Source of the DNA: a virus
Length of the DNA: 64,000 bases
Virus record (IMG/VR): IMGVR_UViG_3300029922_000007
Location: 102,170-166,169 of that record
Reading direction: 5' to 3' (one strand)
Within the stretch, counting starts at the first letter, position 1. Each line of letters opens with the position of its first letter. The translations under genes and the position numbers were made by a program. Below, in pieces: positions 7,832 to 46,879 of the stretch. The notes beneath the pieces were generated by a model. That model worked only from the letters and a program-made list of their open reading frames with translations. It made no database searches and had not been told where the DNA came from.

Positions 7832-8568
7832 CTTACCCAGTACTTAATGAATGGATGTCCGGACTGGTAATAAGCTTGAGCAACCCCATTCATTTCGGCA
7901 TCCCCATAGTCTTTTTTTAAACGCCAATACCAAATAAAAGAAGCTACGTAGCACATGAAGGATGTTTGGTAAGTATTCTGCATAAGATGCCAACTTAAGC
8001 GTCTTGGGTCTGCCTGATTGATGGGCGTATTCGTGCAGCTAATCGCTATGGATGCTGCTGCTATAAAAAATAAGGGCATCGCCATAACCCTAACCAAAAG
8101 ATGAAGTGGGTTCCAGAAAGACGGGAACGCAGCTGAAACCATAGCTGCTAATAGTTGAGGCTGTCTGACCAAAAAACTTTGAGTGGTCCACTGACCTGGG
8201 CTAACATTGTTCAACGCTCCGAGATATCGAAAAACAGCCCAAAGAAATTTTCTGGGTATTTTAGTGTTTCCTAAGTATGAGCAAGCATTTAGGACGGCAT
8301 AGTAGTCGTCCGGACCTTCTTGACCATCTGATTGACTAGTTGGAACCCTATTGAGCATACCCTGTGAGTTTATGCAGTTTTGTATCGTTTTATCGAAAGT
8401 TACACAATCATCTTGCGTTAATTGATTAGATTTTGCTAAGATAGTGTAATATTCGGACGTAAACATTGGGCCGTTGTCACTAGCAGAAAGCGTTCCGGGT
8501 GTAACTAGATTTGGTGAAATCAATCCGTTACCATCTATATAAGGCTTAATGTCGTCTCTAATACTCAT
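7828..8568 (-). CDS. Hypothetical helical protein with hydrophobic segments, probably late
   Basis: 246-aa ORF directly preceded by CAATCTTA. Confidence 0.7.
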   Translation of the reverse strand: MSIRDDIKPYIDGNGLISPNLVTPGTLSASDNGPMFTSEYYTILAKSNQLTQDDCVTFDKTIQNCINSQGMLNRVPTSQSDGQEGPDDYYAVLNACSYLGNTKIPRKFLWAVFRYLGALNNVSPGQWTTQSFLVRQPQLLAAMVSAAFPSFWNPLHLLVRVMAMPLFFIAAASIAISCTNTPINQADPRRLSWHLMQNTYQTSFMCYVASFIWYWRLKKDYGDAEMNGVAQAYYQSGHPFIKYWVS

Positions 8569-8573
8569 ACTAG

Positions 8574-8581
8574 TAAGATTG
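8574..8581 (-). promoter_or_regulatory. Putative late promoter motif CAATCTTA
   Basis: 5 nt upstream of ATG 8568. Confidence 0.6.
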
Positions 8582-8607
8582 ACATTAGAATTTTGGCATG
8601 GTAGAGT
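8579..8607 (+). promoter_or_regulatory. Sigma70-type promoter (leaderless SLT mRNA)
   Basis: TTGACA-17-TAGAGT with TG extension; ATG follows after 6 nt. Confidence 0.75.
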
Positions 8608-8613
8608 CTAGAA

Positions 8614-9060
8614 ATGGAAGTAATGACCCTTATTATGTCTGCGGCTAAGGCGGTTGGAGTATCTGGAACCCTGTTGCTTGCTATTTGCAACCATGAATCT
8701 GGGGGGTTTAGGCAAAATTATGCCCCTTTTGATAAGGGCACACCAAGTTATGGTTCTTGCCAGCTAAAGGAAGATACGGCCTTAATGTTTAACTTTCAGG
8801 GTCTCCCCTTTGAACTTAACGATCCCAAAGAAAATGCCAAATATTCCGCCTTATATCTGAAATATCAGCAGGATAGATACGGTGAAGACTGGGTTAAGAT
8901 GACAGCGGCCTATAATAGTGGCACGTTTTTTGAAAGTAAGAGGGTTCCTGGCTGTCCGCGCAACCTCCGATACGTCAATCTGGTAAAGGCCAAGCTGCCC
9001 TTGGATTTGCAAGGAAGGCTGAATTGTGGCTTTTCTAGCAATTTTGCGGAGGCAGAATGA
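8614..9060 (+). CDS. Lytic transglycosylase (SLT domain)
   Basis: LLAICNHES (catalytic E), SYGSCQL..TA, L.DP.EN, AAYNSG motifs. Confidence 0.85.
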   Translation: MEVMTLIMSAAKAVGVSGTLLLAICNHESGGFRQNYAPFDKGTPSYGSCQLKEDTALMFNFQGLPFELNDPKENAKYSALYLKYQQDRYGEDWVKMTAAYNSGTFFESKRVPGCPRNLRYVNLVKAKLPLDLQGRLNCGFSSNFAEAE

Positions 9061-9251
9061 TTAAGTTTTGTTGGCTGTGCAGCAAGAAACTCTGGGGTCG
9101 TCACAAAGAAGTCTTGATAATTGATTACTATCCTAGGACCCTCCACAAGTCTTGTGCTAAGGACATTAAGCGAGAATCTGACTACCAGAAGGACAGAGAT
9201 GGAAGCTATCACTCCATGCATTGGGAGCCTATGGGCGCTTTTACGGATTAG
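9057..9251 (+). CDS. Hypothetical small Zn-binding protein
   Basis: ATGA overlap; CxxC...HxxC. Confidence 0.6.
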   Translation: MIKFCWLCSKKLWGRHKEVLIIDYYPRTLHKSCAKDIKRESDYQKDRDGSYHSMHWEPMGAFTD

Positions 9252-9253
9252 GA

Positions 9254-9282
9254 TTGACTCTTTAAGGTAGGTGTGATACTGT
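9254..9282 (+). promoter_or_regulatory. Sigma70-type promoter
   Basis: TTGACT-17-TACTGT with TG extension. Confidence 0.6.
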
Positions 9283-9316
9283 CTTTTTAGGTAGAAAGCC
9301 TAGAAAGAGTTGATCC

Positions 9317-10567
9317 GTGGGAGTAAGTAGGATATCTGATAAACAACATTACGAAAACTTAAAAGATTGTGTTGAAAAACGCGGTGGTAAGCTAGTATCT
9401 GAAAAATACTTAGGATCTAGAATAAAGCTAACCATAGACTGCGGTAAGGGGCACGAATGGGACTCTATACCCCGAAATATAATCGTTCTGAAGTCTTGGT
9501 GTCCGTTTTGCGCTAAAACCAGAACTCCTGGGATTGAAGGTATGCAGGAATTGGCTCAAGGTCAGAATCTTGTGTGCTTAAATAAATTTAAAAAGGGGGA
9601 AGAAAACACTTTTCAGTGGAAATGTTTGTTGTGTGGCGACACCTTCATAAGAAGGTTGAGCCATATTAGAAGCAGACCCGGTTGTTCCAATTGTAAGGCT
9701 AGAAATTTAGGCGAAAGGGTTTGTAGGCTATCTTTTGAGGCAATCTTTGAATCGAAATTCCCCAATACACACATGTCATGGCTTATAAACAATAACGGAA
9801 ATACGCTAACCCTAGATGGGGTTAATACCGATCTTAAGATAGCATTTGAGCATCAAGGAGAACAGCATTTTAAATTTAAAAAACACTTTCATAGAAAGGA
9901 AGGCGCTCTAGAAGATATTATACGGAGGGATAATTTGAAGATTAAGCTTTGTGAGGAAAATGGATATAAATTAGCAATAGTGCCAGACCTAATCTGTGTA
10001 GGAAAAATATTTTCCTCTATAGAGTCAGGACAATCCCTTATCCCCATTCCCGAACCGATTTTATTGGCCTGTAAGAACGCTGGAATAATACTACCAGACA
10101 GCGTAAGATCGATACTGTTGGACTTAAAGAAAATTACCGGAAAAGAAAGCGATCAAATACTGGAATCTCTCAAAATTCATGCAAAAAATGGTGGGTTTAG
10201 TATACCTGACTGTCTTATTTATAGCATGCACGATACTCCAATAAAAGCTATTTGCTATAAGTGTGAGTACGAGTGGAACACAACACCTACAAGAATAAAA
10301 GTGGGAAAGGCGTGTCCTAGATGTGCTGGGACGTTAAGGCTAGAAATAGGTTGGTTCAAACAAGAAGCGGAAAGGCGCGGCGATGTCCTTTTATCTACTC
10401 AGTACAACGGCCTATCGAGCTTTATCGAAGTAAAATGCGGCAAATGTAGCCATATTAGGAAAGTGCTAGCGCAAAGCTTTAGAAAGGGGCATGGTTGCAA
10501 AAAGTGTTCAGATAAAGAAGGCGCCAAGAAAAGATTAGCAAATCAGCTCAGGTCAAGAGGCCAATAA
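9317..10567 (+). CDS. Putative homing endonuclease, PD-(D/E)xK/Vsr-like core flanked by Zn-ribbon repeats
   Basis: LTLDG...IAFEHQGEQH...D.LK..LC core; four CxxGH/CxxC...CPxC repeats. Confidence 0.75.
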   Translation: MGVSRISDKQHYENLKDCVEKRGGKLVSEKYLGSRIKLTIDCGKGHEWDSIPRNIIVLKSWCPFCAKTRTPGIEGMQELAQGQNLVCLNKFKKGEENTFQWKCLLCGDTFIRRLSHIRSRPGCSNCKARNLGERVCRLSFEAIFESKFPNTHMSWLINNNGNTLTLDGVNTDLKIAFEHQGEQHFKFKKHFHRKEGALEDIIRRDNLKIKLCEENGYKLAIVPDLICVGKIFSSIESGQSLIPIPEPILLACKNAGIILPDSVRSILLDLKKITGKESDQILESLKIHAKNGGFSIPDCLIYSMHDTPIKAICYKCEYEWNTTPTRIKVGKACPRCAGTLRLEIGWFKQEAERRGDVLLSTQYNGLSSFIEVKCGKCSHIRKVLAQSFRKGHGCKKCSDKEGAKKRLANQLRSRGQ

Positions 10568-10974
10568 AGTACTTGGCCGATAAAAGAAAAGCTTACAGAG
10601 TAAACCCCCTTAGTCTGAACCGACTCAGAAATATTCGATACTTGTGCCTTAGGAATTGACCAGATTGTCTCGCCGCTTTGGCGATCTTCGAGTCTAAGGC
10701 TGCAGTAATTTGTTGCGGCCAAATTCGAAAATAAAGAGATCAAATTAGATCCCTGAAGTCCTCCGCTGTTGGTTATCCGCACTCCTTTACAGTTCCCCTT
10801 AACTACATTTTGTCCGCCAGTAGCTATTTCTTGCGGATAGGGAGAGTTGATCCCATAGATACTATAAGCGCCTTGATCCAACTCTATGGATACACTCTGA
10901 GTTATTGAAAAAATTTTATTGTTAACGTAGAGTCTACATCTAGCCCCAGTTATTACGAGCGATTGTTGCGCCAT
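10543..10974 (-). CDS. Tail tube-like protein
   Basis: 143 aa, ITGARCRLYVN..QSVS..IYGINSPYPQEI pattern of the tube fold; sits in the baseplate operon. Confidence 0.6.
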   Translation of the reverse strand: MAQQSLVITGARCRLYVNNKIFSITQSVSIELDQGAYSIYGINSPYPQEIATGGQNVVKGNCKGVRITNSGGLQGSNLISLFSNLAATNYCSLRLEDRQSGETIWSIPKAQVSNISESVQTKGVYSVSFSFIGQVLYWPLDLS

Positions 10975-10983
10975 ATGAACTCC

Positions 10984-12915
10984 TTATGGTCCGTAAACAT
11001 AGTCAACTTCCGAGTAAACAGTTCCATATTTACCCAATCCGATGTCGTTAGGATACAGGATCGTAAAATTTACCGTAACGCCAGCAGCCACAACCGAACC
11101 AATAATTGTTTGGCAGTAGGACCTAGCGTTCGCTGTGTCTGTGAGATATCCTTGATAGTAGGAGCCGTCGCTTGGCAAAACGATCGGCGCTTTAGAGGTA
11201 ACCAAAAGAACCGAAGTTCCAACTGGATGATCTTTTTGAATGAAATATGCTGGACTAACAAGAAGAGTCCCAGAACTTGGGGCAGCTATATAAGGAATGG
11301 GACCTTCCTGATTTTCTCCGCCATAGTCAAAAATAAAGTACCCGCTTGCGTCTGGGAATCCTACAGAAGACCCGACTGTAATGACGTGACTAGTCTCGCC
11401 GTTGACATCTTCTGTCAGGGTAGTGCTAGCGCCACCGATCGTAAAACCTTGGCTCGGATCAAAAATATAGGGTCCTAGCGTTATTGGCAAACTCGGTCCG
11501 GCATCTGCGATGGTAGTTGGATCGACCACAGTCATCGTAACGACGTTATCTACTACAGTATAGGTCAGAGTTGGAAGAACCGCACTAACAGCATCAAAAA
11601 CCTTAGCGGCGACAGTGCCTGGCAAATCCTCGCTTCCAATATTGACTTCAATCCCAGTGTATCCATTTGGAGCAGGATCCGTATTTCCACCATCGACATT
11701 AAGCCAACCATAGTACTGGAACATCGACCCTAAATCGTCTATCAAATAGTAATCTGCTATACCGGTACTAGGATAGAAACTTCCTGCTTGCAGAACTAAT
11801 TGTACCACGGGCTGTTCTGTAACCCCATGCAGGTGCATTGAACCGATCCTGCTTCTTTCGATTATCTTTGTTGTAGCGGGCAAAAATATCTGTAGGGTAT
11901 TGGCCTGAACTTGATAAACTGCAGCATAGTATTGCTTATTTAGGATAGTTTCTCTAACTGGTGTGTAGAATAAAACAGCAGTATCTGTTCCCTGCACTAC
12001 AATTCCAGTACTTCCAAGTGGACTATAGATTTGAAAATACGCAATGTCTACAGCCCCACCTTGGGATGATATAATAGGATACGATCCTTCGTTACTAGAA
12101 GAAGCGAACCCTCCACCAAAAATATTCACGTACTGCTGAGGTTCAACCACTCCAAGATTTGGGTCTGCTCCACCTGTCCAAGTAAATCTTAAATTCCCGC
12201 CTGGTTGTTGACTGATAGTCCACTGAGTTGAAAAATTGCCCCCAGCTGGGACTGTTGCACTAAATGAAAGTACGTTTTCTGCTCTACCACCTAAGACTGT
12301 AATGGAAGAAGAAGCTCCAATAGTGCTAGATACTAATTGAACATAGTTTCCATTGCCATCATTATTTACGATCGCACTACCAGAAACACCCAAACGGCTC
12401 AATCCAATAGAAATAGCGTTTGCGATTTCCTGCGCACTTGCTGCAGCGATACTAGTAAACTGACTTGCATGAAAAGTAACAGTACTGGTATTTGCGCCAT
12501 CAAAGTTAACGATTAGGGTGTCGCCGTCTTGCAAATTATAGGGCTCTAAGTTTTGAGCGTTAGAGGTGGCTTTTACGAATTCATCGCCAAACACAATGTC
12601 CAGGATGTTATTGATTAGATCTCGTACTTGCTTTCTATTTTTAACTTGAATACCCAAAGCACTGAAGATGGTATCACTAAGCCCAATAGTAGGATCTCTG
12701 GTGATCCCATAGTTGGCCAAACGAAGGTCTAGAAAGGCTCCTTGGGCAGTACCGATATAGAGAGAATCGTTAACTGCAGCGGCTGAATTCACCAAATAAG
12801 TACTGCACGAGGATGCAATAGCATTAAGAATTGCTGTAGTATTAGGCCCATTAATATATTGGCTAAGATACTGTCTTAACTTTTTATATTCTGTTGCTGT
12901 ATCAGTGACTGCCAT
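10984..12915 (-). CDS. Baseplate wedge protein (partner of the J-like protein) with inserted domains
   Basis: TAQGAFLDLRLANYGITR..LSD..F and C-terminal VAAGVTVNF motifs; directly downstream of the J-like gene. Confidence 0.7.
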   Translation of the reverse strand: MAVTDTATEYKKLRQYLSQYINGPNTTAILNAIASSCSTYLVNSAAAVNDSLYIGTAQGAFLDLRLANYGITRDPTIGLSDTIFSALGIQVKNRKQVRDLINNILDIVFGDEFVKATSNAQNLEPYNLQDGDTLIVNFDGANTSTVTFHASQFTSIAAASAQEIANAISIGLSRLGVSGSAIVNNDGNGNYVQLVSSTIGASSSITVLGGRAENVLSFSATVPAGGNFSTQWTISQQPGGNLRFTWTGGADPNLGVVEPQQYVNIFGGGFASSSNEGSYPIISSQGGAVDIAYFQIYSPLGSTGIVVQGTDTAVLFYTPVRETILNKQYYAAVYQVQANTLQIFLPATTKIIERSRIGSMHLHGVTEQPVVQLVLQAGSFYPSTGIADYYLIDDLGSMFQYYGWLNVDGGNTDPAPNGYTGIEVNIGSEDLPGTVAAKVFDAVSAVLPTLTYTVVDNVVTMTVVDPTTIADAGPSLPITLGPYIFDPSQGFTIGGASTTLTEDVNGETSHVITVGSSVGFPDASGYFIFDYGGENQEGPIPYIAAPSSGTLLVSPAYFIQKDHPVGTSVLLVTSKAPIVLPSDGSYYQGYLTDTANARSYCQTIIGSVVAAGVTVNFTILYPNDIGLGKYGTVYSEVDYVYGP

Positions 12916-12924
12916 AAATTTCCC

Positions 12925-15900
12925 TTATGTTAGTAACGATACACTTATATCACTAAGTTGAACGACGAATGCTTTTTGGCCAGTAGCTAATACAATTTCG
13001 TCATTGTTTACATTATATGCTGGACTCACCATCACAACGCTGGTCACACCAGGGATCAGCCTTACAGTTTCCACGATAGAACTCAAGTCAATACTAACTC
13101 CCAAGGGATTCGATTCAATCAAGGAGTACACTGAAGCTTGGATCTGCTGAGTAATCTGGCTGAACGAAACACCAATATTAGTTCTTATGGCCAAAGAAAC
13201 TTTAACTCTGAAATCGAGAGGTTCTCTGATAAAAATATTAGTACCAGCCGCCGAGACTCCTGGGTAGCTGATTGGATCACGTGGATCGCCATAGATTACT
13301 CGATTTGATTCACCGATCAAACCCGTATCGTAGTTATACGAATCTATTCCAAGTCTAATCGTTGTTGGAAAGTTTAATTTTCCAAGTGCAGTCATAGTAA
13401 CACCAGCGCTCAGATCGATTTTTTCATATTGGGCAGATGTATTGAAAACGATATCGTTAAAGCTGGTAGTTCCTGGCTCAGATGCAACATATGCAACCTG
13501 TTTATAGCCGGTGTACTTGATACCTTCTTGCACAGAGAGAGATGAAAAATTACCAGCAACATTCGTATCGTATTGAGTAGAAATTACACCAGATACAACG
13601 ACAGATGTTGGACTCAAAACCTGCAAGATATTATAGGTTCCAGAATTGCCTGCTCCAAGAACGGTTCCATTAACGACAAACTTATCTCCGGGAACGGCAG
13701 CTTCGTATGGATAGAATTGAATCTGAGGACGATCTACGGAGAAAGTTACAGATGAGATTCCAGACTGTACCACAGCGGAAGGATTAACGACCGTCAAGAA
13801 TGGGGTTTGTCCGGTTTGAGTTACCACAAAGCTGAATGCGGCAGGCATCGAAACATCAACAGGAACATGGGTCGCGGCTGCAACAGTAGCAGTTACAGTA
13901 ACGACATTCCCACTTACAGAATGGGTCATCAAGGCCAAAGCTGAAAGGGCAGTATTGGTCTTAGTGGCAACCGTAGCTGCCGTATCTGGAGTAACACCAC
14001 CAACGACGGTCACTTCGATACCAGTAAAACCAGCAGGAGCCGGATCAGTATTTGAGCCACCAGATACATTATACCAAACGTAGTACTTATTAGCGTTTCC
14101 ACCGTTCCAAATTTCGAAGTAGTCTCCAGGACCAGTCGATGGGAAGGTTATAGCTGGGGGCATTGTAAATTGAACAATTTGTTGCTGTGAAGGTCCAGAT
14201 TGTTTTACAGTGAAGCTTCCTTGATTTGGGGTAGAGAAACCGGTTCCAAAAGTAACCACATCGCCTGGTTGGGCAACCCCTAAGAATGGAGCAGTTCCAG
14301 TTCCAGTCCAACTGAGAGTTTCGATCCCTCCAGAAACAGAAACATTAAATACAGTAGTAGCATCGTATCCAGTAGAAATAGTACCTGCAGTGCAGGTTAC
14401 TTCTTCTTCTACAGAGTTAGCATTTTCATACCAAACACTATCGTTGTTTTCACGAATGACTCGATATTCACCTTGATTGAGGGGGCTGAAGGGGGAAGCT
14501 AAAATCATCGTGTCGCCTTCAGAAACAGATGATGTAGCGGTGAAGTCTCCAGCTAGTACAATAGTCCCATTTTCAACTACTACGGATGGATTAGAAACGG
14601 TAAAGGACAATCCATCTGGAGATACTCCAGTTACAAAGAATGTCCCGTTATTGCCAGCGTTCGCCATCCTCGTAATGGTAATCAAGTCTCCAATAGAGAG
14701 ACCGGCAAAGTTGGCATTGCCAGCAGGTCCAGGAGGGGCTGACTGTGTGTTAATGGTTGCTGTATCGCTTAAGGTAACCGCTGCAGTCAAGGCGATTAGG
14801 GACCCATTTACGATGCCGCCAAGAGTGTTGATGATGCTTGCCTGAGCTACAATATTACCTTCAAAGGTTCCAGCACTTCCACTATTAATGGTAGCAGATG
14901 AACCCACAATCCAGAAGATGTCTGCTGCAGTAGCCCCACCAGTCAAAACCATAGTTGGAACCCCACCAGCTCCAGTTGTGAGGGTAGACGCCGCATAAAT
15001 GATGTATTGTCCTGCACCATTAAAAGTCAGGGTTGCAGGACCCGATGTGGCCAAGTTAAACGTCCCGCTAGATTCCTTATAATTCCCAGGAGTCAAAACT
15101 ACTCCATCGAGATCTGCAGAAATAGCAGTTCCGGCCAACCCAAGAGTTTGCATGCTAGTATATGCTGCTAGAGCATCATTTTGGGCGGTATTTGCTGCTG
15201 AGTTAGCCAAGTTAGTAGAGCCAGTAACGGTAAAAGTGCCGGTAACAGTAGATCCAGGATATTCACCCAAATTCCCATTAACTACGCTGGTTCCAACACT
15301 ATTAGTGATGGCAGAAGATGCCAAGATCCCATAGGTAGCTGCTGACGCTAAAGGGCTTGGAGGTGGGGTTGGAGTTGGAACAGAGGTGTACGTACCATCA
15401 GAAGATACGTTTACGGTCCAATTCCCAGTATCGTTAAAATTCACTGAAGAGCTAAAGTCGGGAGAAGTTCCAACCCCATTCCAGCTAAGGCAGGTCAACA
15501 ATCCTTGTTTTTCTACCCTGAAAGTATCTCCTACAACCCTAATACCGCTTCTAGGAGCGCCAAAGTAGAGTTGCGCAGTTTCTTGGTTCAGGAGTATGAT
15601 CGTAGATTGTCCATCTATCGGCGTATTTTGTAGAACGGTAACACTCGTGTTATTGCTGATCCCCGTATCTTTCGTTTGATAGTTTGCCGCTTGGAGTCTG
15701 AACCATTGATCGCTAGCTACTGCTTGACTGGCGATGCTGTTAGCGGAGATGGACATCTCATTGTTACCAAGTAGCTCCCCAGAAGTCAATACTGGAACGA
15801 CATATTCGTTACCACTTCCGCCTACGATTTGGATAGCTCCGACAGATCCCAATGTTTCCGTTGCGAGTTGGAGTTTGGTTCCACGATCGACCACTTCTAC

Positions 15901-18900
15901 AGTTCCAACGGTAGTAAACCCAGTTACAGCCAAGATAGACCAAAGCCTTTGGACTTGATCCATAGTAGTTGGAATAAGTCTGACTTCATCTCCACTTGTA
16001 AAGAAGCTATAACCTGTATCGCTAGGGTAGGTAAGTGGTTCTTTAAGGGTAAATTGTGGATTTCCAGTAACGTTGGAGCTTGCAATCCAGTTAATCCCAT
16101 CTTTTAGGAAGTAGAATGGATGTGTAAATCCGCTATCTTCGAAAGTACTCAAAGCGATAATGCCAGATCCAGTAGTTCCGCCGTCATTTACGATCGTGGA
16201 AGTAAAGTACTGTTTTAGATTTGCATTGATATAGGTATTTATTTGTGCTGCCGTAGTTGGGGTTGCAATATAAAAAGTAATCCCGTTTAGAATGGTAGTA
16301 ACTACTCCAGTTTGATTTACGGCGGTACCGGTTGGGACTTGAACACTAAAGGATGTAGAAGTTGGAGTAAATCCTACTGCAGAAGATACCTTGAATGTTC
16401 CAGTGTTTGCGATGTTAAATCCGGTCGATGACAAGATCGTAACGTACTCTCCACCAGACAAGAACAGGGCTGGGTTGCCAGGACCGGAAAGGGTAAAGGC
16501 CGAGAAAGCAATCGTAGAATCGCCAGTTCCGGAAGTCTTGGTTAAGATTCCAGACGCAAGAGGCGGCCCACCAGCGCTCATTGCCGTTATCGTCGTACCA
16601 ACAAGCGTAACCTTAGTCGCGGTGACAGTGAACGTTTGGCCATTACTCGTATAGGTCGCGCCAATAGTTGCAGCGGCTGCCGTTGGGACAGTGAAAGTAT
16701 ACACTCCGTCCCAATTATAGGTTACTTGATCTGTCCCAGCAGTAGGGGTATTAGGGGTTACCGTTACGTTCCAAAGAGTGCTTGGCGCAATAGAAGATGC
16801 AATTGGTGCTCCGGACTGTAGGCCGATCGAAACACTTACTTCATTGTTAGAAGTGACAGTAACCGTAGAATTAATGGGTTGATTGGCAGAAGTAGGGTAG
16901 ACATAGGAAACATTTACCGCTTCACCGCTTCGGCCCCAAAGGGTGGACCTGATCAAAAGCGCTGTTTGAGCATTTGATCCCTGAAGTACAAATTTTGGTT
17001 GCAATAGGACCTTGAAGTTTGAGAAATCAAAGCCAGCAAAGTTTGTGGCAAAGGAAGCAGTAGGGCCAGCATCCACATCGTATGCGTTGAAACTATAATC
17101 GTTAGCGGGCCAAGTGCTGTTAACTATGGCTCTCCTGTAAAGAGGCATAGTATAGGTTTCGCCAGCAGTATTGTTGTCTACGATGGTAACTACCGTATCG
17201 TTATATCCAAAGTCGAGTGGGTTGGCCACATAGTACCTATCAGCGATTCTAAGACGTCTAACGTTTGGATACTCTGGGAGGATGGTAATTGCGGTTCCAG
17301 AAGTTGCCCACATTTGAACATTTTCTTCAGAAGGCTGTTCGTCATCAATAAGGCCAGTTCCAGCAGTAGTAAGGGTGGTTCCAGCTATGATGGTGGTACC
17401 TACCGTGAAGAAAATTCCGTTGTTAGAATACACAGCCCCGGAAGTTGCGTTTGCAGAGGTAGTCGTAAAGACAAATTGTCCTGGAGCAGGCGATGTAAAC
17501 GCAGAGAAAGTAATCGTTGAATCTCCGGTTCCAGAAACTTTGGTAAGAACTGGGGATCCAGAAGAAGGCTGTGAGTTGACTACTGCTGCAGCGCTTAAAG
17601 TTACAGCGGCAGTCAAGGCAATTAAAGATCCGTTAACTGTTCCGCCGAGGGTATTGGTGATGGAGGCCTGCGCTATGATGTTACCTTGGAAGGTTCCAAT
17701 ATTCCCGCTATTGATGGTAGCTGAGCTGCCTACAATCCAGAAGATGTTCTTTGCTAAAGCCCCACCAGAGAGGACCATGGTTGGAACGCCACCAGCACCG
17801 GTAGTAAGGGTAGAAGCGGTGATAATGATGTACTGTCCTGCCCCATTAAATGTAAGAGTTGCAGGACCAGAGGTAGCTAAAGTCGCTGCACCGGAAGAGA
17901 AGCTATATACGCCTGGAGTCAGGGTTTGACCGTCCAAGGCGGAAGGAATGACAGTCCCTGGAGCTTCTGCTGCCATGGTAGTATAAGCGGCCAAGGCGTC
18001 GTTTTGGGCGGTATGGGCCGCGCCATTAGCTAAGTTTGTAGCTCCAGTAACCGTAAAAGAACCGGTAACGGTAGAGCCAGGATATTCACCCAAGCTGCCG
18101 TTAACAGTGCTAGTCCCGACGCTATTGGTGATAGCGGAAGCCGCCAAGATACCATAATCGGCGGCTGAAGCTAGTGGGCTCGTAGAAGGACCGCCAGTAA
18201 GAGAGGGCGAGCTACCATATGGGTTCAGGAAATTGATAATTTCATTTGGACCGAATTGACTCAAAGATCTGGTGGACGTGAAGTTGGTTAGATATGTATC
18301 GATAGGTTCAGCATAGGAATCAGCACTGATCGTAGAATGAAAGAAAAGTGGTAATTCGGCAGTAGTAGCCTGGGTTTCATAGAACGCTACAAGGGCGTCC
18401 TGACTAGAGCTATTAGCCTGAGTGGTAAATCCAAGAGCTTGTCCTTCGGCATCAGCCGTAACAATGGTAAGCTCGCCTTCAGTATTGAGGGTGTTGGTAG
18501 TAACTACGATATTCGTATTGTCGAATACAGTGAAGGTGGCTTCGTCCGTTTGAGCTTGGAGTTCAGCGGCAATAACATCCAATGTACTGGTCCCAGACGT
18601 TACTTCGAACTTCTGAGGAACGTTGTTGGTTCTAACAACTACTAAACCCTGAACATAGAGGGCGTTCGTTACTGGAGTTACCAGGGCAGCTTCAGCGGCT
18701 GTGACCTTAATAGTCAGAACGGATCCGGTTGCGGAATGAACTCTTCCTTCAAGTTGGTCAGTATCGGGAATTTCGGCAGACCAAATGATGACGTAGTCTC
18801 CGGGAAGAACATTCGAAAATGAATTAGCTCCAGAAGAAGTGTAGCTAACCAAATCTCCTGAGACAGAAACGGAAAGATTAGATCCGGATTGGATGGTTGG

Positions 18901-21165
18901 AATGATTACTTCTGGAGAATCGATTAGGATCCAAACATGGGCGTTAGAGGTGAGCGTTACTGATCCAGAAGGAATGGTGATGCCTTTAATGTTGGCTTGA
19001 GTTACGAGAGTGCCTGCGGAAAGCTTATCTCCTTTAACCAAGGGCTTGACCAACTGAATCTGAGCGGTATTTCTGTCCAAAATATAGTCTGAAGCTACCC
19101 CAGTGGAGGTGAGGTCGGTGACGCTGATCATTCCCTTAGCAATCAAAGAGCTTGGATTAGCTACGGTATTTACGACCGTAACTTGAGCGCGATTTACCGC
19201 GCCAAGATTACTGGTGAATTCGATGGTGGACCCAACAGGGGTAGCAGTAACACCGGTAAGAAGTTTATTGAAGACGTTGACCCAAGATTGAATGCTGTTT
19301 GAGGAAGAGACGGTTTGATAAGTACCTTCAGCGACAAATTCAGCATCGGTGACAGTATAGGTCGTTGGTTGGGTTCCATCTACTGAAAGACTGAGAGTTT
19401 CGCCATTAGCAATAGTAGCGGACCAAAGACTCTGTGACTCAGTAAAGATAGAAGCAGTAGATCCATCTTCAGTGAGAAGGATTCCGTTTTTGTAGAGTCT
19501 GAGAGTTTTGGCGACGTTGGACGGGAATTGGAGTGCGAGGTTTGCATCGGTTACCAGGGAAGAGCTTGGGGGTTTAACTTGGATAGTATTGATAGTTTGG
19601 GAAATAGGACGAATGACGACAAAAGTTCCGTCGCCAGAAGTAACCGCTTCATAGGCAAGTAGGGTGTCGGCATTAATGCTAGCGGTAACTTCGTAGGCCG
19701 TAGCAGATCCTGGATTCTGAAAGTCGGTGGAAGCGAAAGTGTGCTGATAAGTAACATTCCCAACGATAACTTCCAGGACTTCGCCACCAGAAAGGGCGAA
19801 TGGGGATGGAGCAACAGTTTCAAGGAGAGCCTTAGTTACTGAAGTTTGGGTTCCACCAGTTACGAGTTGAAAATATTGTTCGCCGCCAAGAGCAGAATCT
19901 ACGATGGACTCGATTCCAACACCTAACCACGTAGCTTCGTAGCCGGAGCCATCATCAACATAAACAATGGTATTGCCCGAAGAATTCAGGATATCCGTGC
20001 TAACGATGGTAGCCGAAGAATTAGGGTCTTGGACCCCGAGCAATGCGCTCTCGATTGCAGTTACGGTCCCTAAGCCAGTAGAAGAAAGTTGAAGCTTGAT
20101 TCTAATCCTGTACGCATCATCTGTCTCTGTGTCGGCCCCGGTGGTAAAAGAAACGGGGTTAGTAACTGTAGCATTTGGGAAAGGAGCGCCTGCAAATTCA
20201 TCAACGGCACCAGCAGGAGCGTTCCCTAGAGCGCCTGGAAGCATGGCCGTCACAGCCACATTAGTCACGGTCGTTTCGCCATCGAGAATGATGGCCTGCT
20301 GAGTTACTGAGAATTGAATGTCTGGAGTGGACCCAACACCTGGATCGACTACGACAGTATTGACTGGGATAGTCCTAACGCCACCTTGAGCAAGAATAAC
20401 GGATTCGTTCAGGTTGTGATACTTAGTGGTTGGGCTAACCAGGGTAATGGCCCAATAGGAGCCAACTCGAACTGGAGGGGTACTGAAGGTAAAGACGATC
20501 CCACCAGCAGTTGCGGTGGCCGGATTGCTGATTGTAATTTGGCTACTAGAATCTACTGATTGGATGATGGATCCAGCTACAATGCCGATACCTGAAATAG
20601 GGAAGCCAGCGAGTAGGCCAAGAGTCGAAGATAGGCCGGAAATGACGTTTGAGAGATTTGCAGTGCTACCAGTGGCAGAAAGGGTTCCGGTGCCATAGGT
20701 TAGAGGGCCTTCGATGTCGGAGGTGCCACGGCCAATATAGAGGCCTCCGGTGGCTGGGAAGAGGGAAGCGTCGGAAACATAGATGGTGGTAGAGCCAATG
20801 AGGGGTGGATTCAAGCCAGAATAGATCTTGGCAGAAATCTTCTGAAATGAAGTATCAATTACCGTTACAAATCCAGTAGTTACCTTGGCGGTAAGGCGTG
20901 GAATGCCGTATTCTACGCCAAGACGATCTAAACTACTGCCCGTAGCCCTATCCAGGGAGAAATCTCGGAGGATAGAGAAGATGTCCCCGCTTGACCTAGC
21001 GGCTATCAAACTGACAATTTCAAAAAATTTTACATTGGCAGCCGAAACGCTTTGATCGGAAATCCCCAACGATCCCGCATAGCTAGAGAGTGCATTGCCA
21101 AGAATCTGTTGGTAGCTCTGGGGCTGTGGGAGAGATCCATTTTGAGAAGTAGGGGTAGTGGCCAT
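12925..21165 (-). CDS. Giant baseplate-J (gp6-like) protein with about 2200 aa of inserted beta domains, including two DUF3494-like domains
   Basis: N-terminal ATGSSLDRLGVEYGIPR..PGALGN..GADTETDDAYRIRI..GTVTAI; C-terminal SAAGTNIFI..QASVYSLI..LGVSIDLSSIV..IPGVTSV. Confidence 0.85.
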   Translation of the reverse strand: MATTPTSQNGSLPQPQSYQQILGNALSSYAGSLGISDQSVSAANVKFFEIVSLIAARSSGDIFSILRDFSLDRATGSSLDRLGVEYGIPRLTAKVTTGFVTVIDTSFQKISAKIYSGLNPPLIGSTTIYVSDASLFPATGGLYIGRGTSDIEGPLTYGTGTLSATGSTANLSNVISGLSSTLGLLAGFPISGIGIVAGSIIQSVDSSSQITISNPATATAGGIVFTFSTPPVRVGSYWAITLVSPTTKYHNLNESVILAQGGVRTIPVNTVVVDPGVGSTPDIQFSVTQQAIILDGETTVTNVAVTAMLPGALGNAPAGAVDEFAGAPFPNATVTNPVSFTTGADTETDDAYRIRIKLQLSSTGLGTVTAIESALLGVQDPNSSATIVSTDILNSSGNTIVYVDDGSGYEATWLGVGIESIVDSALGGEQYFQLVTGGTQTSVTKALLETVAPSPFALSGGEVLEVIVGNVTYQHTFASTDFQNPGSATAYEVTASINADTLLAYEAVTSGDGTFVVIRPISQTINTIQVKPPSSSLVTDANLALQFPSNVAKTLRLYKNGILLTEDGSTASIFTESQSLWSATIANGETLSLSVDGTQPTTYTVTDAEFVAEGTYQTVSSSNSIQSWVNVFNKLLTGVTATPVGSTIEFTSNLGAVNRAQVTVVNTVANPSSLIAKGMISVTDLTSTGVASDYILDRNTAQIQLVKPLVKGDKLSAGTLVTQANIKGITIPSGSVTLTSNAHVWILIDSPEVIIPTIQSGSNLSVSVSGDLVSYTSSGANSFSNVLPGDYVIIWSAEIPDTDQLEGRVHSATGSVLTIKVTAAEAALVTPVTNALYVQGLVVVRTNNVPQKFEVTSGTSTLDVIAAELQAQTDEATFTVFDNTNIVVTTNTLNTEGELTIVTADAEGQALGFTTQANSSSQDALVAFYETQATTAELPLFFHSTISADSYAEPIDTYLTNFTSTRSLSQFGPNEIINFLNPYGSSPSLTGGPSTSPLASAADYGILAASAITNSVGTSTVNGSLGEYPGSTVTGSFTVTGATNLANGAAHTAQNDALAAYTTMAAEAPGTVIPSALDGQTLTPGVYSFSSGAATLATSGPATLTFNGAGQYIIITASTLTTGAGGVPTMVLSGGALAKNIFWIVGSSATINSGNIGTFQGNIIAQASITNTLGGTVNGSLIALTAAVTLSAAAVVNSQPSSGSPVLTKVSGTGDSTITFSAFTSPAPGQFVFTTTSANATSGAVYSNNGIFFTVGTTIIAGTTLTTAGTGLIDDEQPSEENVQMWATSGTAITILPEYPNVRRLRIADRYYVANPLDFGYNDTVVTIVDNNTAGETYTMPLYRRAIVNSTWPANDYSFNAYDVDAGPTASFATNFAGFDFSNFKVLLQPKFVLQGSNAQTALLIRSTLWGRSGEAVNVSYVYPTSANQPINSTVTVTSNNEVSVSIGLQSGAPIASSIAPSTLWNVTVTPNTPTAGTDQVTYNWDGVYTFTVPTAAAATIGATYTSNGQTFTVTATKVTLVGTTITAMSAGGPPLASGILTKTSGTGDSTIAFSAFTLSGPGNPALFLSGGEYVTILSSTGFNIANTGTFKVSSAVGFTPTSTSFSVQVPTGTAVNQTGVVTTILNGITFYIATPTTAAQINTYINANLKQYFTSTIVNDGGTTGSGIIALSTFEDSGFTHPFYFLKDGINWIASSNVTGNPQFTLKEPLTYPSDTGYSFFTSGDEVRLIPTTMDQVQRLWSILAVTGFTTVGTVEVVDRGTKLQLATETLGSVGAIQIVGGSGNEYVVPVLTSGELLGNNEMSISANSIASQAVASDQWFRLQAANYQTKDTGISNNTSVTVLQNTPIDGQSTIILLNQETAQLYFGAPRSGIRVVGDTFRVEKQGLLTCLSWNGVGTSPDFSSSVNFNDTGNWTVNVSSDGTYTSVPTPTPPPSPLASAATYGILASSAITNSVGTSVVNGNLGEYPGSTVTGTFTVTGSTNLANSAANTAQNDALAAYTSMQTLGLAGTAISADLDGVVLTPGNYKESSGTFNLATSGPATLTFNGAGQYIIYAASTLTTGAGGVPTMVLTGGATAADIFWIVGSSATINSGSAGTFEGNIVAQASIINTLGGIVNGSLIALTAAVTLSDTATINTQSAPPGPAGNANFAGLSIGDLITITRMANAGNNGTFFVTGVSPDGLSFTVSNPSVVVENGTIVLAGDFTATSSVSEGDTMILASPFSPLNQGEYRVIRENNDSVWYENANSVEEEVTCTAGTISTGYDATTVFNVSVSGGIETLSWTGTGTAPFLGVAQPGDVVTFGTGFSTPNQGSFTVKQSGPSQQQIVQFTMPPAITFPSTGPGDYFEIWNGGNANKYYVWYNVSGGSNTDPAPAGFTGIEVTVVGGVTPDTAATVATKTNTALSALALMTHSVSGNVVTVTATVAAATHVPVDVSMPAAFSFVVTQTGQTPFLTVVNPSAVVQSGISSVTFSVDRPQIQFYPYEAAVPGDKFVVNGTVLGAGNSGTYNILQVLSPTSVVVSGVISTQYDTNVAGNFSSLSVQEGIKYTGYKQVAYVASEPGTTSFNDIVFNTSAQYEKIDLSAGVTMTALGKLNFPTTIRLGIDSYNYDTGLIGESNRVIYGDPRDPISYPGVSAAGTNIFIREPLDFRVKVSLAIRTNIGVSFSQITQQIQASVYSLIESNPLGVSIDLSSIVETVRLIPGVTSVVMVSPAYNVNNDEIVLATGQKAFVVQLSDISVSLLT
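14750..15357 (-). other. DUF3494/ice-binding-like domain 2 in the baseplate-J protein
   Basis: LASAATYGILASSAITN..GNLG.YPG..AQNDALAAY..LDG.VLTPG.Y..IFWIVGSSATI..FEGNIVAQASI..GSLIALTAAVTL. Confidence 0.85.
17575..18180 (-). other. DUF3494/ice-binding-like domain 1 in the baseplate-J protein
   Basis: LASAADYGILAASAITN..AQNDALAAY..LDGQTLTPGVY..NIFWIVGSSATI..FQGNIIAQASIT..NGSLIALTAAVTL. Confidence 0.85.
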
Positions 21166-21181: not shown

Positions 21182-22165
21182 TTAAAGGATCCCCATCTCC
21201 TTAAGTTTTTTCTTATCCCAAAGCTCAGAGTTTGGAAATTGGGTAAGAAACCAATCCCATTTAATTTGGGACTTCGGTCTCATATATCCCTTAATTTCTA
21301 CCCACTTATTTTCATTAATTAGAAAAAGATCTGGTAGGTAGGTGGAAGTTTTGCCGGTTATAGCTGATGCCGGTAGGGTGAAGGTTTGAGGCTGCCATAG
21401 GAAATCTATTTTCCTCTCATTCAGATAATCAACGACCTTAGGCTCGTAAGAGGCCTGACAAACAAGTTCTTCCCCTGTTTTCCAATGAAATTTTATGACG
21501 CTGTTGCTTTGTGTTCTAGCAGCTTTTAGGGAAACATCTTTATTTTGCATTGGATTGGGAAACCCGTACTTTTCCAAATTAGTTTTCATAAATTTTTGTC
21601 TAGTTCTAGCGGGATGTCCGTGTCCTTTAAAGGCGCTAGTGACTAAGCATTCGAAGGCCCCATGCTCTTTATCTATGAAAGATGCTTTGTCGTTGATTAC
21701 GGTATAGGTATCCTCTACTATAGTAATGGTGTCTCCATGAACATCCGATATTCTTTTCCTTACTTCTGTAATGGGAATTCTGTACGTAAGCGGATGATTA
21801 GTGCCGTTAACTACTACGTTTTTAACTGAAGCGTCCCATGGACCGTGAGTTTTATTTATAAACGTTGCATCACTTCTTGAATTTTTGTAGGTCTCTTCGA
21901 CTATTGTAACGTCCTCCCCATGCATTTTAAAAAGTCTACGTTTTACCTCTTCTATTTTTTGTGTTTTCTTTTCAGTGCTATCTTTGGGGTGGCCGTGACC
22001 GTCTAGGATATTCTTAACCCATGGATTCCAGGGTCCGTGTTTCTTATGTATGAAAGTTGCTTTAGCTAATATTTCCGTATAGGTGCTTTCCACTATGGAG
22101 ATTGTGTCTCCATGTGCCCTGAATATCCTATTTTTAATCTCTTCGATGGGGATCCTTTTACTCAT
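21182..22165 (-). CDS. Putative homing endonuclease, DUF723-like repeats plus C-terminal PD-(D/E)xK nuclease
   Basis: Three HGD.I.IVE.TY..A.FI.K.HG repeats; TNLEKYG motif; YLPDLFL..WVEIKG. Confidence 0.8.
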   Translation of the reverse strand: MSKRIPIEEIKNRIFRAHGDTISIVESTYTEILAKATFIHKKHGPWNPWVKNILDGHGHPKDSTEKKTQKIEEVKRRLFKMHGEDVTIVEETYKNSRSDATFINKTHGPWDASVKNVVVNGTNHPLTYRIPITEVRKRISDVHGDTITIVEDTYTVINDKASFIDKEHGAFECLVTSAFKGHGHPARTRQKFMKTNLEKYGFPNPMQNKDVSLKAARTQSNSVIKFHWKTGEELVCQASYEPKVVDYLNERKIDFLWQPQTFTLPASAITGKTSTYLPDLFLINENKWVEIKGYMRPKSQIKWDWFLTQFPNSELWDKKKLKEMGIL

Positions 22166-22177
22166 ACGATCCTTATA

Positions 22178-24925
22178 TCATTGATTCGCTAGCTGATTAC
22201 CTAGTTGGAATCCGATTGGAAAAACTCCGGCGACCCCCGCAATACCCACTGCAAGATTAATGCTAAGTGATGGACCTTGCTGGTTAATTTGTAGGCCCGT
22301 AATCCCACTAAATCTTGGATCAGAAGTAATAGCGTTCGTAATCGAATTATAGATATCTTGTGCTTTGAAGTCGGCGATACTGGATCCCGGCTTTACCGCA
22401 GCACCAAATGTTGGATTGGCGTAACTGGTCCCAGCAACACTGGACATGGTGGTCGTCAAAGCCTGCACGAGATTTGGGATCCCTGCTGCAAGTCTAAAAT
22501 CTCCAGTATTGGTAACGGCAAGGTCCGCACCACTTCCATTACTGTTGGGCTGTAAAAGCCAATCGACCTTCGAAAGTGCGACTAAATCCACATTTGCCAC
22601 GGAAGTTGGAATTGATATTTGGTCGTAGGCTGGAGTTTGCAAATCTGAAGGGATAAAGATCACATTCGAACTATTGACGGTGCCAGGCAGGTACGCTTTC
22701 AGGTAGGCTCCGTCCGCGATTTTATAGATTTCCAGGTTCGCATCTCCATCTAAAGTCAACAAGAAGCTCGTCTGTGAAAGCGTAACGATATCCAGGATAG
22801 TTCTAGTGGTTGGGCTCTGAACCGAAGAATTGATGGAAACTAGCTGGCCTACAACTAAATTGGTACTGTCTCCGATGACTATATTCCTACCGTCGGCGTT
22901 GGATAGCAAATTATAAACAAAGCCCGTCTGATCGATGTAGGGTTCGACTAAGTTATTTAGTGTTGCAATCTCAAGCCATCTCTGCGCATCTCCCAAATAT
23001 CTGAGAGCGATCCCTTCCATATCCAAACCAAACGGGACTGGCTGTTGAACCTTAGAATTCGGAATAGAGAATGGGATACCTGAAGCTTGAGCTAAACTCT
23101 GTACGTACTCCATGTTATTTAGGGTATCCTGACTATCCAATTGTTGGGTTGCCGTCAGAATATCGTACGATTGCAGAAGCTCATAGAAAGTTTGCAGGAT
23201 ACTATATTGGTCTAAGGTGATAACCTGATTGCTAGTGTTTGGTGTAAATGGAGTATTATAGATTTTGCTATAGTACTGGTTTCCAGCCCCGAAAGAACTC
23301 TCAAGCTGCGTGACCATTGTTAGGATCGTTCCGCGCATTGCCTTGAGTTGTGCTACAGAAAATGAGTTTACCGTATCTACTTCGTTTTCTAGAGCCGCTT
23401 GTTGCTTTGAATTGAGTTTTAGGCTATTCACTGGAACCTGGCTGAAAAGCATTGGATTTAGTTGTGGTTTAACGAAGATATTATAGGCTGGATCGACTAC
23501 GGAGGCTGGAGAGATAGGAGAAGAGGTTACCCGCATTCTACCGCCTATATGAGGTTTCACGGGACCTGGCTGAGATCCTGCGAAGTTTTGTGGTGATAGC
23601 CCTTCGTTATCTCCAACAGAGGCCTTCAGAGCTTTAATTGCCCCGAGTACCCCTCCATTAGTGGCTCCAGCGCCCGTCAGGTTATTTAGGGTAAGCGTAC
23701 TCATGAACTGAGTGATAGTGCTTGAAGCGTCGTTAATAAGCTGTGAGGGTAAGTCGGAAGCAGCAATGGCAACTCCGGCAAGATCTTTAACGAATAGTCC
23801 AGTTTGACGGATTATATTCAGGATATTGTCAACATCGGAACGAACAGAGCCAATCAGAGCGGCAGAAGCTGCAGCAGTATTTTGTGCGGCAGTAATGGTT
23901 CCTAATATTTGTTGGAGAACACCTGGAGTGATTGGAATCAAAGTGCTTGGAGTATTTGCAAAATAATTGTTTAGGTCAATTCTACGCCAAGCTTTCAGCT
24001 GGAGATTGTAATTGATCTCCATTGGCTTATTTACATTTTCGTTCCAGGTAAAGGCTACTGGCGAGACCACAAAGGATTGTTTTTGTTTAGGAATGTCAAA
24101 GACTAGCCGCCAACTTGCGTTTACCGGATTCTTTTTAGCTTCTGCATACTGTTCTAGAAATTGTTGAAGGGCTATGGCCTGATAATATCCGGTTAGTTGT
24201 AGACCGTTACCTTGATCGCCAGGATCGCCTGGACTTACCGTTTTTGGTTTATTTGCATTTCCGGTTAGAGCGCTAACCACTGATGAGAATTGGGTAGCTA
24301 CGTTTTGGGCAGCAGCGATAGTACCTCCAAAGAGCGACTGCAGCCCGCTTGTTAGGGCGCTTGCAGGACTACCGGGAGGGGTAATGATGCTGTGTCTATT
24401 AGGCCAAACACCAAAAGTCCCCTGAATAGATATATTCTTAAATCTTACTCCGGAATGCTCTTCGAGGATACCCCTCAAGGTCGCCGACGTATTAATAGCA
24501 TAATTATCGGTAATATTAAGTTGTTGTGGGGTAATTGGTAAATTAAAGATCCACTGTGAATCGTCGATTGGCGTGATTGAGAGAGTTGAAACTGATTCTC
24601 CGGGAAGGGCCGTTACTTGCACCGTAGGAGTAATTGTTCCTCCAACAACGCCCCCTTTACCCTTATTAGCTCCCGTATCCCACACTATAAGCCTATAAGG
24701 CAGTAGTTTGTTCCAAAGTGTCCCATCCGGCTTGAAAAAAGAAAAAAAGGCGCTTTGGACTAAGGTCTTCGAATTTTGCCAAGGAAAAGAGCTGCCTTTA
24801 GCGTTATGGATCTGCGCGGCACTAATGGACGCCACAGAAAGAGGATTAAGGGATTGTGGGTTTGGTAGGCGCGTTTGAATTGGCCCTGCGGTGAAGCCGA
24901 AATTACTGTCTGTGCCGATGGTCAT
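22178..24925 (-). CDS. Multidomain baseplate protein: tube-initiator-like N-terminus, LysM-like domain, gp25-like C-terminus
   Basis: FNLPITPQQL..ISIQGTFG; MEGIALRYLGDAQRWLEIATLNNL; LAAGIPNLVQAL..PTFG..ITSDPRF. Confidence 0.7.
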   Translation of the reverse strand: MTIGTDSNFGFTAGPIQTRLPNPQSLNPLSVASISAAQIHNAKGSSFPWQNSKTLVQSAFFSFFKPDGTLWNKLLPYRLIVWDTGANKGKGGVVGGTITPTVQVTALPGESVSTLSITPIDDSQWIFNLPITPQQLNITDNYAINTSATLRGILEEHSGVRFKNISIQGTFGVWPNRHSIITPPGSPASALTSGLQSLFGGTIAAAQNVATQFSSVVSALTGNANKPKTVSPGDPGDQGNGLQLTGYYQAIALQQFLEQYAEAKKNPVNASWRLVFDIPKQKQSFVVSPVAFTWNENVNKPMEINYNLQLKAWRRIDLNNYFANTPSTLIPITPGVLQQILGTITAAQNTAAASAALIGSVRSDVDNILNIIRQTGLFVKDLAGVAIAASDLPSQLINDASSTITQFMSTLTLNNLTGAGATNGGVLGAIKALKASVGDNEGLSPQNFAGSQPGPVKPHIGGRMRVTSSPISPASVVDPAYNIFVKPQLNPMLFSQVPVNSLKLNSKQQAALENEVDTVNSFSVAQLKAMRGTILTMVTQLESSFGAGNQYYSKIYNTPFTPNTSNQVITLDQYSILQTFYELLQSYDILTATQQLDSQDTLNNMEYVQSLAQASGIPFSIPNSKVQQPVPFGLDMEGIALRYLGDAQRWLEIATLNNLVEPYIDQTGFVYNLLSNADGRNIVIGDSTNLVVGQLVSINSSVQSPTTRTILDIVTLSQTSFLLTLDGDANLEIYKIADGAYLKAYLPGTVNSSNVIFIPSDLQTPAYDQISIPTSVANVDLVALSKVDWLLQPNSNGSGADLAVTNTGDFRLAAGIPNLVQALTTTMSSVAGTSYANPTFGAAVKPGSSIADFKAQDIYNSITNAITSDPRFSGITGLQINQQGPSLSINLAVGIAGVAGVFPIGFQLGNQLANQ

Positions 24926-46309: not shown

Positions 46310-46879
46310 TCAAGGGGTATTTTTCTTTCTTGGGCCGGATAAATCGCGAGACGTCTTTCGGCGGTGACAAGTCTTACATAAACAGACTACCCCTTCCAAG
46401 TTCAGTGAAAGAGGTTTATTTCCCTTATAGATGGCCTGCACATGATCGATTTCCGGTTCATGTCCTTCAGGGCTCTTTTGTTTAATTCTCTTCATTAGCC
46501 AATAGGAATAAACTACCTTAAAATCATTAGGCTTATCGTAGACTCTACCGTTAACCAAAAGCTGAAGGATGAGCGGAACGTAGTCATATTGACAATCGGA
46601 GCACTTGAAATCTTGTCTGACCAATAAATACCATAGGGAATTCTCACCTTGAGGGTAAAAATGAGCCTTTGCAGATTGAGAGCAGTCTTTCCCGCAGTAC
46701 TTTATTCCTTTAACTTTCATGGCATTACACCATGCGCACAGCCTTACGCCATCTACGATGATGGGCTGTATTAGAGTAAGGGCTACGGACCTGTTTTGGC
46801 ACGATTTAATAAGTTCGATGGCTTTAGGGTTCGTAGGAGGTTTGAGCATCAGAAGGATAATATCATGGATCGGTCTCAT
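46310..46879 (-). CDS. HNH endonuclease
   Basis: RQDFKCSDC..EIDHVQAIYKG..LCKTCHRRKT. Confidence 0.75.
   Translation of the reverse strand: MRPIHDIILLMLKPPTNPKAIELIKSCQNRSVALTLIQPIIVDGVRLCAWCNAMKVKGIKYCGKDCSQSAKAHFYPQGENSLWYLLVRQDFKCSDCQYDYVPLILQLLVNGRVYDKPNDFKVVYSYWLMKRIKQKSPEGHEPEIDHVQAIYKGNKPLSLNLEGVVCLCKTCHRRKTSRDLSGPRKKNTP

Follow-up and report, generated by a model that had tools for sequence, protein, structure and literature searches.

DUF3494 ice-binding-type domains as cassette insertions in a giant baseplate protein of an Mx1-like phage

The window analyzed here is a stretch of 64,000 nucleotides of viral DNA that forms the final 64 kb of a 166,169-bp IMG/VR record (IMGVR_UViG_3300029922_000007) rated complete by CheckV; the virus is an uncultured phage of soil type. 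We describe one of its genes, a single unbroken open reading frame (ORF) of 2746 amino acids (aa) containing two stretches of the ice-binding DUF3494 type, together with the proteins of the same phage and its relatives that carry this domain. The gene, its two domains and the modules inserted around them are as follows.

12925-21165, minus strand: giant 2746-aa baseplate-J / T4 gp6-type wedge protein (P0001), assigned from phrog_6, homology to Myxococcus phage Mx1 and about 36 orthologues
20074-20376, minus strand: Baseplate_J core, aa 264-364 (PF04865)
17353-18204, minus strand: cassette 1, aa 988-1271, made up of a linker, DUF3494 copy 1 and a permuted small 'S' module; a precise indel, not in Mx1
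17551-18180, minus strand: DUF3494 / IBP-1 copy 1, aa 996-1205 (PF11999, AlphaFold2, Foldseek)
16480-16716, minus strand: second S module, aa 1484-1562 (local matches to a hidden Markov model (HMM), alignment A2, AlphaFold2 predicted local distance difference test (pLDDT) score of 81)
14536-15411, minus strand: cassette 2, about aa 1919-2210, made up of a Pro-rich linker, DUF3494 copy 2 and a second linker; a gap in the alignment to Mx1
14722-15357, minus strand: DUF3494 / IBP-1 copy 2, aa 1937-2148 (PF11999; 89% identity to site 2 of orthologue P0004)
13939-14235, minus strand: 'Y' module, aa 2311-2409 (58% identity to aa 110-205 of a 441-aa protein of the phage; region not in Mx1)

The initial annotation of this DNA, made from the sequence alone, had claimed two complete DUF3494 domains and had proposed Pfam and AlphaFold as checks. 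When the 2746-aa protein was compared with Pfam, PF11999 (Ice_binding, DUF3494) matched it far above the cut-off (175.7 bits against 28.7, E 1.3e-51) over two full-length stretches, and a six-frame search of the genome with the same family placed these at 17581-18150 and 14761-15327 (110 and 96.7 bits), inside the positions originally assigned to them. The domain limits listed above were set by a purpose-built HMM, and the two copies share 78% protein identity. Every signature motif and Pro-rich linker that had been claimed is present in the translation, including YGILA.SAITN, AQNDALAAY, LTPG.Y, IFWIVGSSAT and GSLIALTAAVTL, with the Pro/Ser/Thr-rich linkers PTPTPPPSP ahead of copy 2 and SAPPGP behind it. 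The AlphaFold2 model of the domain (pLDDT 95.5, predicted template modelling score 0.91) likewise has the DUF3494 fold, in which a helix (residues 59-76) precedes a stack of short strands. The top 31 Foldseek matches in the PDB were all DUF3494 ice-binding proteins, with template modelling (TM) scores of 0.65-0.88, and the best of them were the capless ice-binding proteins EfcIBP (6EIO, TM 0.81) and AnpIBP (7BWX, TM 0.88 by target). Model and Foldseek matches agree on a discontinuous right-handed beta-solenoid with a long alpha-helix alongside. A profile of alignment A1, which comprises 75 domain copies with cellular ones included, matched 6EIO end to end among the PDB sequences (E 5.5e-64). 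The domain of about 205 aa aligns with EfcIBP residues 29-228 with no large gap, as in the capless subgroup, in which the first coils and the long helix are not separated by a capping head segment. Thus, by Pfam, by profile comparison with PDB sequences and by predicted fold, both stretches are real and complete DUF3494/IBP-1 domains.

Other classes of domain were considered and set aside. Pectate-lyase-type rows appeared in the Foldseek results only at E above 1, and a depolymerase or tailspike beta-helix was rejected. The domain is a beta-solenoid and not the immunoglobulin-like (Ig-like) fold of Hoc-type virion decoration domains, to which any likeness is a functional analogy only. Nor do the two copies resemble a secreted ice-binding protein that carries a signal peptide and is free or at the cell surface, for both are internal to a protein whose N-terminus is a Baseplate-J scaffold.

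The carrier had been called a baseplate protein in the initial annotation, and this too was borne out. Its N-terminal part matches phrog_6 (baseplate wedge subunit) with E 1.7e-21, the PF04865 Baseplate_J core within it scores 52.4 bits (cut-off 21.1, E 5.9e-14), and it is homologous from end to end to a J-like protein of Myxococcus phage Mx1, with 33-35% identity over the N-terminal 930 aa, the middle and the C-terminal 265 aa. Approximately 36 orthologues with a DUF3494 domain were found in metagenomes, and both PF04865 and PF26079 are present in orthologues. On the same strand, a phrog_975 baseplate protein is encoded upstream and a tail protein downstream, in an order of tail and baseplate genes that is kept in relatives and is similar to that of Mx1. 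On this homology and gene context we identify the 2746-aa protein as a Baseplate-J / T4 gp6-type wedge protein. It shares the PF04865 core and membership of phrog_6 with T4 gp6, P2 gpJ and Mu gp47; however, the canonical proteins have about 300-660 aa and no DUF3494 domain, whereas this one has some 2000 extra residues in the form of inserted lineage-specific modules.

How the domains came to lie in this scaffold is best seen against its sole relative among 50,697 GenBank phage records, the 'baseplate protein J-like protein' of Mx1 (WNM70274.1, 1925 aa), which aligns to aa 10-932, 1287-1918 and 2482-2745 at 26-35% identity. The two scaffolds are orthologous, and Mx1 has a similar gene neighbourhood and falls in the same genome size class as our phage, but its J-like protein has neither DUF3494 cassette and no Y-module region. 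The alignment stops at aa 1918 and restarts at aa 2211, and PF11999 was found neither in the Mx1 J-like protein, which has Baseplate_J only, nor in the whole Mx1 genome. For site 1, seven metagenomic orthologues (P0018, P0030, P0034, P0038, P0023, P0046 and P0048) join residue ~985-987 straight to ~1271-1272, and by this direct junction copy 1 and its S module form one clean indel. The middle region is different, as a DUF3494 copy is kept there in every orthologue examined. Across relatives the arrangement varies between one copy, two separated copies, two in tandem, and one copy plus a permuted one. Judging from these alignments, we conclude that both domains are cassette insertions.

Smaller modules are distributed in the same protein. 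The S module is a beta domain of about 70 aa (consensus YTFTV..ANAT.GATYTNNGQTFTV...SGTGDATITFS.FT) that occurs one to six times per J-like orthologue and also in the sheath protein described below. The site-1 module has its two halves exchanged (17353-17547, minus strand), and the second S module is missing from P0030 with a clean junction. The only Foldseek matches to the S module were weak (E 0.03-0.1) and involved J-type chains from the baseplates of Mu, E217 and Pa193. The other inserted modules, the Y module among them, had no Pfam family above threshold in a search up to E 1. A 76-aa block at aa 158-233 (20467-20694, minus strand) is missing from several orthologues, which join aa 157 to 234, and from Mx1, and by these junctions it is a further small insertion in the N-terminal scaffold.

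The initial annotation had placed the domains in the baseplate, and two copies are there, but they are not confined to it. There are five PF11999 matches in the genome: the two in the baseplate protein, one in a 441-aa protein and two pieces in a 977-aa tail sheath homologue. These two further carriers, and the baseplate gene upstream of the giant one, are the following.

47745-49070, minus strand: 441-aa protein with a DUF3494 domain at aa 215-406 (nt 47853-48428) and a Y module (PF11999, E 1.1e-32)
C1:19060-21993, minus strand, outside the window: 977-aa protein homologous to the tail sheath of Mx1 (41% identity), with an apparently permuted DUF3494 domain and an S module at aa 114-181
22178-24925, minus strand: upstream 915-aa baseplate protein (phrog_975, E 6.3e-18), in the same order in relatives

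The DUF3494 domain of the 441-aa protein is 65-69% identical to the baseplate copies. This protein has no PHROG family and no match among GenBank phage records; approximately 100 metagenomic proteins of 300-390 aa appear related to it. No PHROG family was found for the 977-aa sheath homologue. In it, the C-terminal part of the DUF3494 domain (aa 244-400) comes ahead of the N-terminal part (aa 397-437), and the domain is apparently circularly permuted. Of two complete relatives, the 171-kb one has four PF11999 matches and the 162-kb one five, in the same classes of protein: J-like, sheath-sized, fibre-like (2287 aa) and small. In one relative (L027, Joint Genome Institute 3300021168 contig, 160 kb) the fibre-like 2287-aa protein is encoded downstream of the J-like gene at 8001-14864 and has a DUF3494 cassette at aa 417-629; the gene at the matching position of our window (3330-6278, 982 aa) is without one.

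The flat face of the phage domain can be traced by alignment to AnpIBP. Comparing the phmmer alignments of the phage domain to 7BWX and to 7BWY, the S153Y mutant, we found the sole difference at the first Ser of GSSAT, which equates AnpIBP S153 and T156 with S1147 and T1150. In AnpIBP, Tyr substitution at S153/T156 brings thermal hysteresis down to 17% (PMC7277481). The equivalents of S1147 and T1150 are kept in 72 and 74 of the 75 domain copies, respectively. With the B face assigned from this alignment and not from model coordinates, there is a Thr ladder of six rungs (T1013, T1105, T1122, T1150, T1170 and T1189), one of which is Ile in copy 2, and the other two outward columns contain Ser, Ala and Thr only. 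The aligned residues thus describe a flat B face of small and hydroxyl residues that includes the S153/T156 equivalents. The face positions are 89-99% conserved over all 75 copies, and since these include the cellular ones, the conserved Thr/Ser/Ala rows do not discriminate ice binding. The initial annotation was correct that the rows are retained, but they are signature positions of the family as a whole. By alignment an intact flat face is retained, and ice specificity does not follow from the conserved positions. In the DUF3494 fold the first coil is stacked on the last coil (PMC7277481), so both linkers exit at one end, an arrangement that allows the domain to sit in a loop, or to be permuted, while its B face stays free.

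The two copies have a long history in these phages. The proportion of synonymous differences (pS) is 0.66-0.73 in all comparisons, copy 1 versus copy 2 included, indicating saturated synonymous sites, and the ratio of non-synonymous to synonymous substitution rates (dN/dS) is 0.04-0.14, with site 2 conserved slightly more than the scaffold. For copy 2 and site 2 of P0004, an orthologue from a peat bog, dN/dS is 0.04. From the saturated pS and low dN/dS, both copies are old and have been held by selection on the protein. A recent DNA duplication or an assembly artefact was ruled out, as the copies have 70% DNA identity and a pS of 0.66. In a maximum-likelihood tree of the domain, all phage-borne copies form one clade (Shimodaira-Hasegawa-like approximate likelihood ratio test (SH-aLRT) 99) apart from the Acidobacteriota-type cellular copies. 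Our site-1 copy clusters with site-2-type copies (SH-aLRT 99), away from the site-1 copies of its closest orthologues (SH-aLRT 96). It has 59% identity to site 1 of P0004, compared with 80% for the scaffold, and with this placement in the tree, orthology of the site-1 copies was rejected for our phage. The pattern indicates that the cassette at site 1 was replaced. Distant orthologues, among them P0021, P0024 and P0032, show 60-72% identity in the domain and only 25-38% in the scaffold. A domain better conserved than its scaffold argues for an invariant ligand and is unlike the fast-evolving tips of receptor-binding proteins.

Several known DUF3494 proteins can be compared with the phage domain. 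EfcIBP, from a bacterial consortium of Euplotes focardii, has the same capless DUF3494/IBP-1 beta-solenoid and is the best sequence-profile match, with STLTT, SSA(S/T), SIT.(D/T) and AVT rows that align. EfcIBP is secreted, stands alone at about 23 kDa, and has thermal hysteresis and cryoprotective activity that have been measured, whereas the phage domain is internal to a 2746-aa virion protein and has no signal peptide. AnpIBP, of Antarctomyces psychrotrophicus, has the same capless fold as well as the two aligned residues, but it is a secreted fungal protein at about 31% pairwise identity, and of the pair, activity has been shown for AnpIBP alone. SfIBP_1 of Shewanella frigidimarina (6BG8, TM 0.78), a proposed ice adhesin, has its DUF3494 domain on tandem Ig-like extenders, so that, as in the phage protein, the domain is tethered to a larger surface-anchored scaffold and is not freely secreted. 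The concept of a displayed domain is common to both; SfIBP_1 differs in having a bacterial cell-surface scaffold, one domain per protein and a capping region. Among viral proteins in BFVD, a fold search found only three that share the fold, all from Hyperionvirus, a giant virus of eukaryotes (A0A3G5A745, A0A3G5ACG7 and A0A3G5AEI1; E 8e-14 to 7e-10). These are annotated as DUF3494, are free-standing proteins of 261-623 aa and are not known as parts of a virion baseplate.

No phage protein was among the BFVD matches, a tblastn search of the 50,697 GenBank phage records had no match to the domain even at E 0.1, and a search of the literature for DUF3494 or ice binding together with phage found nothing relevant. 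These results agree with the remark in the initial annotation that no characterized phage baseplate was known to have this domain. The domain family is a known one, and the structural setting described here is new. Among named cellular proteins, the nearest homologues come from Acidobacteriota (Candidatus Angelobacter, 46%; a Bryobacterales metagenome-assembled genome, 35%), and on that similarity Acidobacteriota as the host is only a guess.

Regarding function, we propose that the two DUF3494 solenoids would serve as plug-in surface modules, each joined by Pro/Ser/Thr-rich linkers to the middle region of the wedge protein, which is lineage-specific. With both linkers leaving one end, the flat B face and its six-rung Thr ladder would be free. 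An outward-facing accessory adhesion module with an invariant ligand, and not a host-specific receptor tip or a structural clamp, is suggested by the dispensability of the cassettes in relatives, the flexible linkers, the location in the sheath and the unusually high conservation; the sheath is not a receptor-recognition part, yet it carries the domain. The swapping of copies between sites within the phage clade supports the plug-in character. Phage virion decoration domains such as Ig-like ones commonly mediate weak carbohydrate adhesion. Proteins of the gp6/J type are multi-copy components of the inner baseplate, which makes multivalent display a fair inference, and T4 gp6 is present in 12 copies per baseplate. 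If the copy number of T4 gp6 and TssF is carried over, about 12 wedge proteins would display about 24 domains, in addition to one per sheath subunit. The multivalent ring on the baseplate that was first envisaged is therefore reasonable in its multivalency but too narrow as a ring, because the sheath and the small protein carry the domain as well. Together, the copies on the baseplate, the sheath and the 441-aa protein would make the tail exterior a multivalent array of flat faces.

The role of such an array may be non-catalytic adhesion, of low affinity and high avidity, to a surface that is extended, repeats regularly and does not change in evolution. We would guess that the selected ligand is a repeating polymer from the host envelope, the host's slime or the soil matrix, with ice binding possibly kept as a side activity. 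The analysis shows the domain identity, fold, cassette nature, selection, presence in several virion proteins and conservation across the clade; exposure on the virion, copy number, adhesion and ligand are all inferred from these, and we favor adhesion to a repeating polymer only tentatively, as the likeliest reading but at slightly less than even odds. Several observations weigh against a polymer ligand. All DUF3494 proteins with a solved structure are ice binders, the nearest two, EfcIBP and AnpIBP, being genuine ice-binding proteins, and the residues that AnpIBP requires for ice binding are conserved in the phage copies. We found no carbohydrate binding by the DUF3494 fold in the literature searched. 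In addition, at least three orthologue-bearing contigs (JAFMOA010001147, JAFMOA010003606 and JAFMOA010001977) belong to the SPRUCE set of viral operational taxonomic units, which was obtained from a bog in northern Minnesota at depths down to 10 cm (PMC8626947), and this peat bog is seasonally frozen.

Most of these observations speak for true ice binding as the selected function, in which the tail would be coated with working ice-binding domains; we regard this as a serious possibility, while leaning against it. A virion of this kind might adsorb to ice or inhibit ice recrystallization around itself and so survive freeze-thaw better, or it might be retained in liquid veins and on ice surfaces, where hosts gather in peat that freezes seasonally. 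Beyond the closeness of EfcIBP and AnpIBP in profile and fold, the nearly invariant S153/T156 equivalents and the inferred outward columns of Ser, Ala and Thr, the high conservation across divergent phages and the location in the sheath fit a ligand that does not depend on the host, and the cultured relative Mx1, from cow dung, is without the domain. However, conservation that extends to cellular copies is no proof of activity, and ice binders are over-represented in the PDB. Members of the DUF3494 family also occur where nothing freezes, as in tropical and hot-spring habitats, and are presumed to bind a variety of repeating substrates (PMC7783341). The association with peat may reflect host range, the benefit for a virion is speculative, and the habitat evidence for a link to ice is suggestive but thin. 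Extended to the whole clade of ~160-177-kb Mx1-like myoviruses from peat and soil, the proposal that the tail (baseplate, sheath, fibres and accessory protein) is coated with functional ice-binding domains and that the particle acts as an ice adhesin or recrystallization inhibitor is possible but, in our judgement, somewhat more doubtful.

A purely structural role, in which the solenoids would stabilize an oversized baseplate and sheath as rigid spacers or as clamps between subunits and have no external ligand, appears improbable. In its favor are a compact, rigid fold, strong purifying selection on both copies, and the placement of the domain within structural proteins that include the sheath. 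Yet the cassettes are dispensable, with site 1 missing in seven orthologues and both sites in Mx1; the copies swap between sites and proteins, their Pro/Ser-rich linkers are flexible, and the 441-aa carrier is free-standing. Least likely of all is a specific receptor-binding domain that sets host range in the manner of tail-fibre tips, for although the protein sits at the baseplate, the fibre-like protein of relatives carries the domain and the closest named cellular homologues are surface-type proteins of Acidobacteriota, the domain is internal and not terminal, occurs in the sheath as well, and is the most conserved part of strongly diverged orthologues, the opposite of what receptor-binding tips display.

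Some further genes of the window are recorded here. Four homing-endonuclease-type genes lie among the tail and baseplate genes, one of the GIY-YIG type and three of the HNH/endonuclease type, with one of the four immediately upstream of the giant baseplate gene; relatives have other endonuclease genes at the matching positions.

6256-7158, minus strand: homing-endonuclease-type gene
9317-10567, plus strand: homing-endonuclease-type gene
21182-22165, minus strand: homing-endonuclease-type gene
46310-46879, minus strand: homing-endonuclease-type gene

A ribonucleotide reductase of 1060 aa is encoded at 40222-43404 (minus strand), and its phrog_367 match is confined to aa 8-454, in two stretches.

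No other microbial ice-binding fold is as common as DUF3494, which also has many members outside cold habitats. Throughout the phage clade described here, which is sizeable in metagenomes, selection maintains it in several tail proteins as a cassette that can be swapped, and the domains are small, predicted to be well folded, and easy to express. If a polymer is bound instead of ice, this would be the first non-ice ligand for the large DUF3494 family. If the tail is indeed coated for ice, it would represent the first structural, virion-borne antifreeze function, and freeze-thaw survival or localization to ice would be a selected trait in soil phages; virions that carry their own cryoprotection or ice anchoring would bear on viral persistence in seasonally frozen soils.

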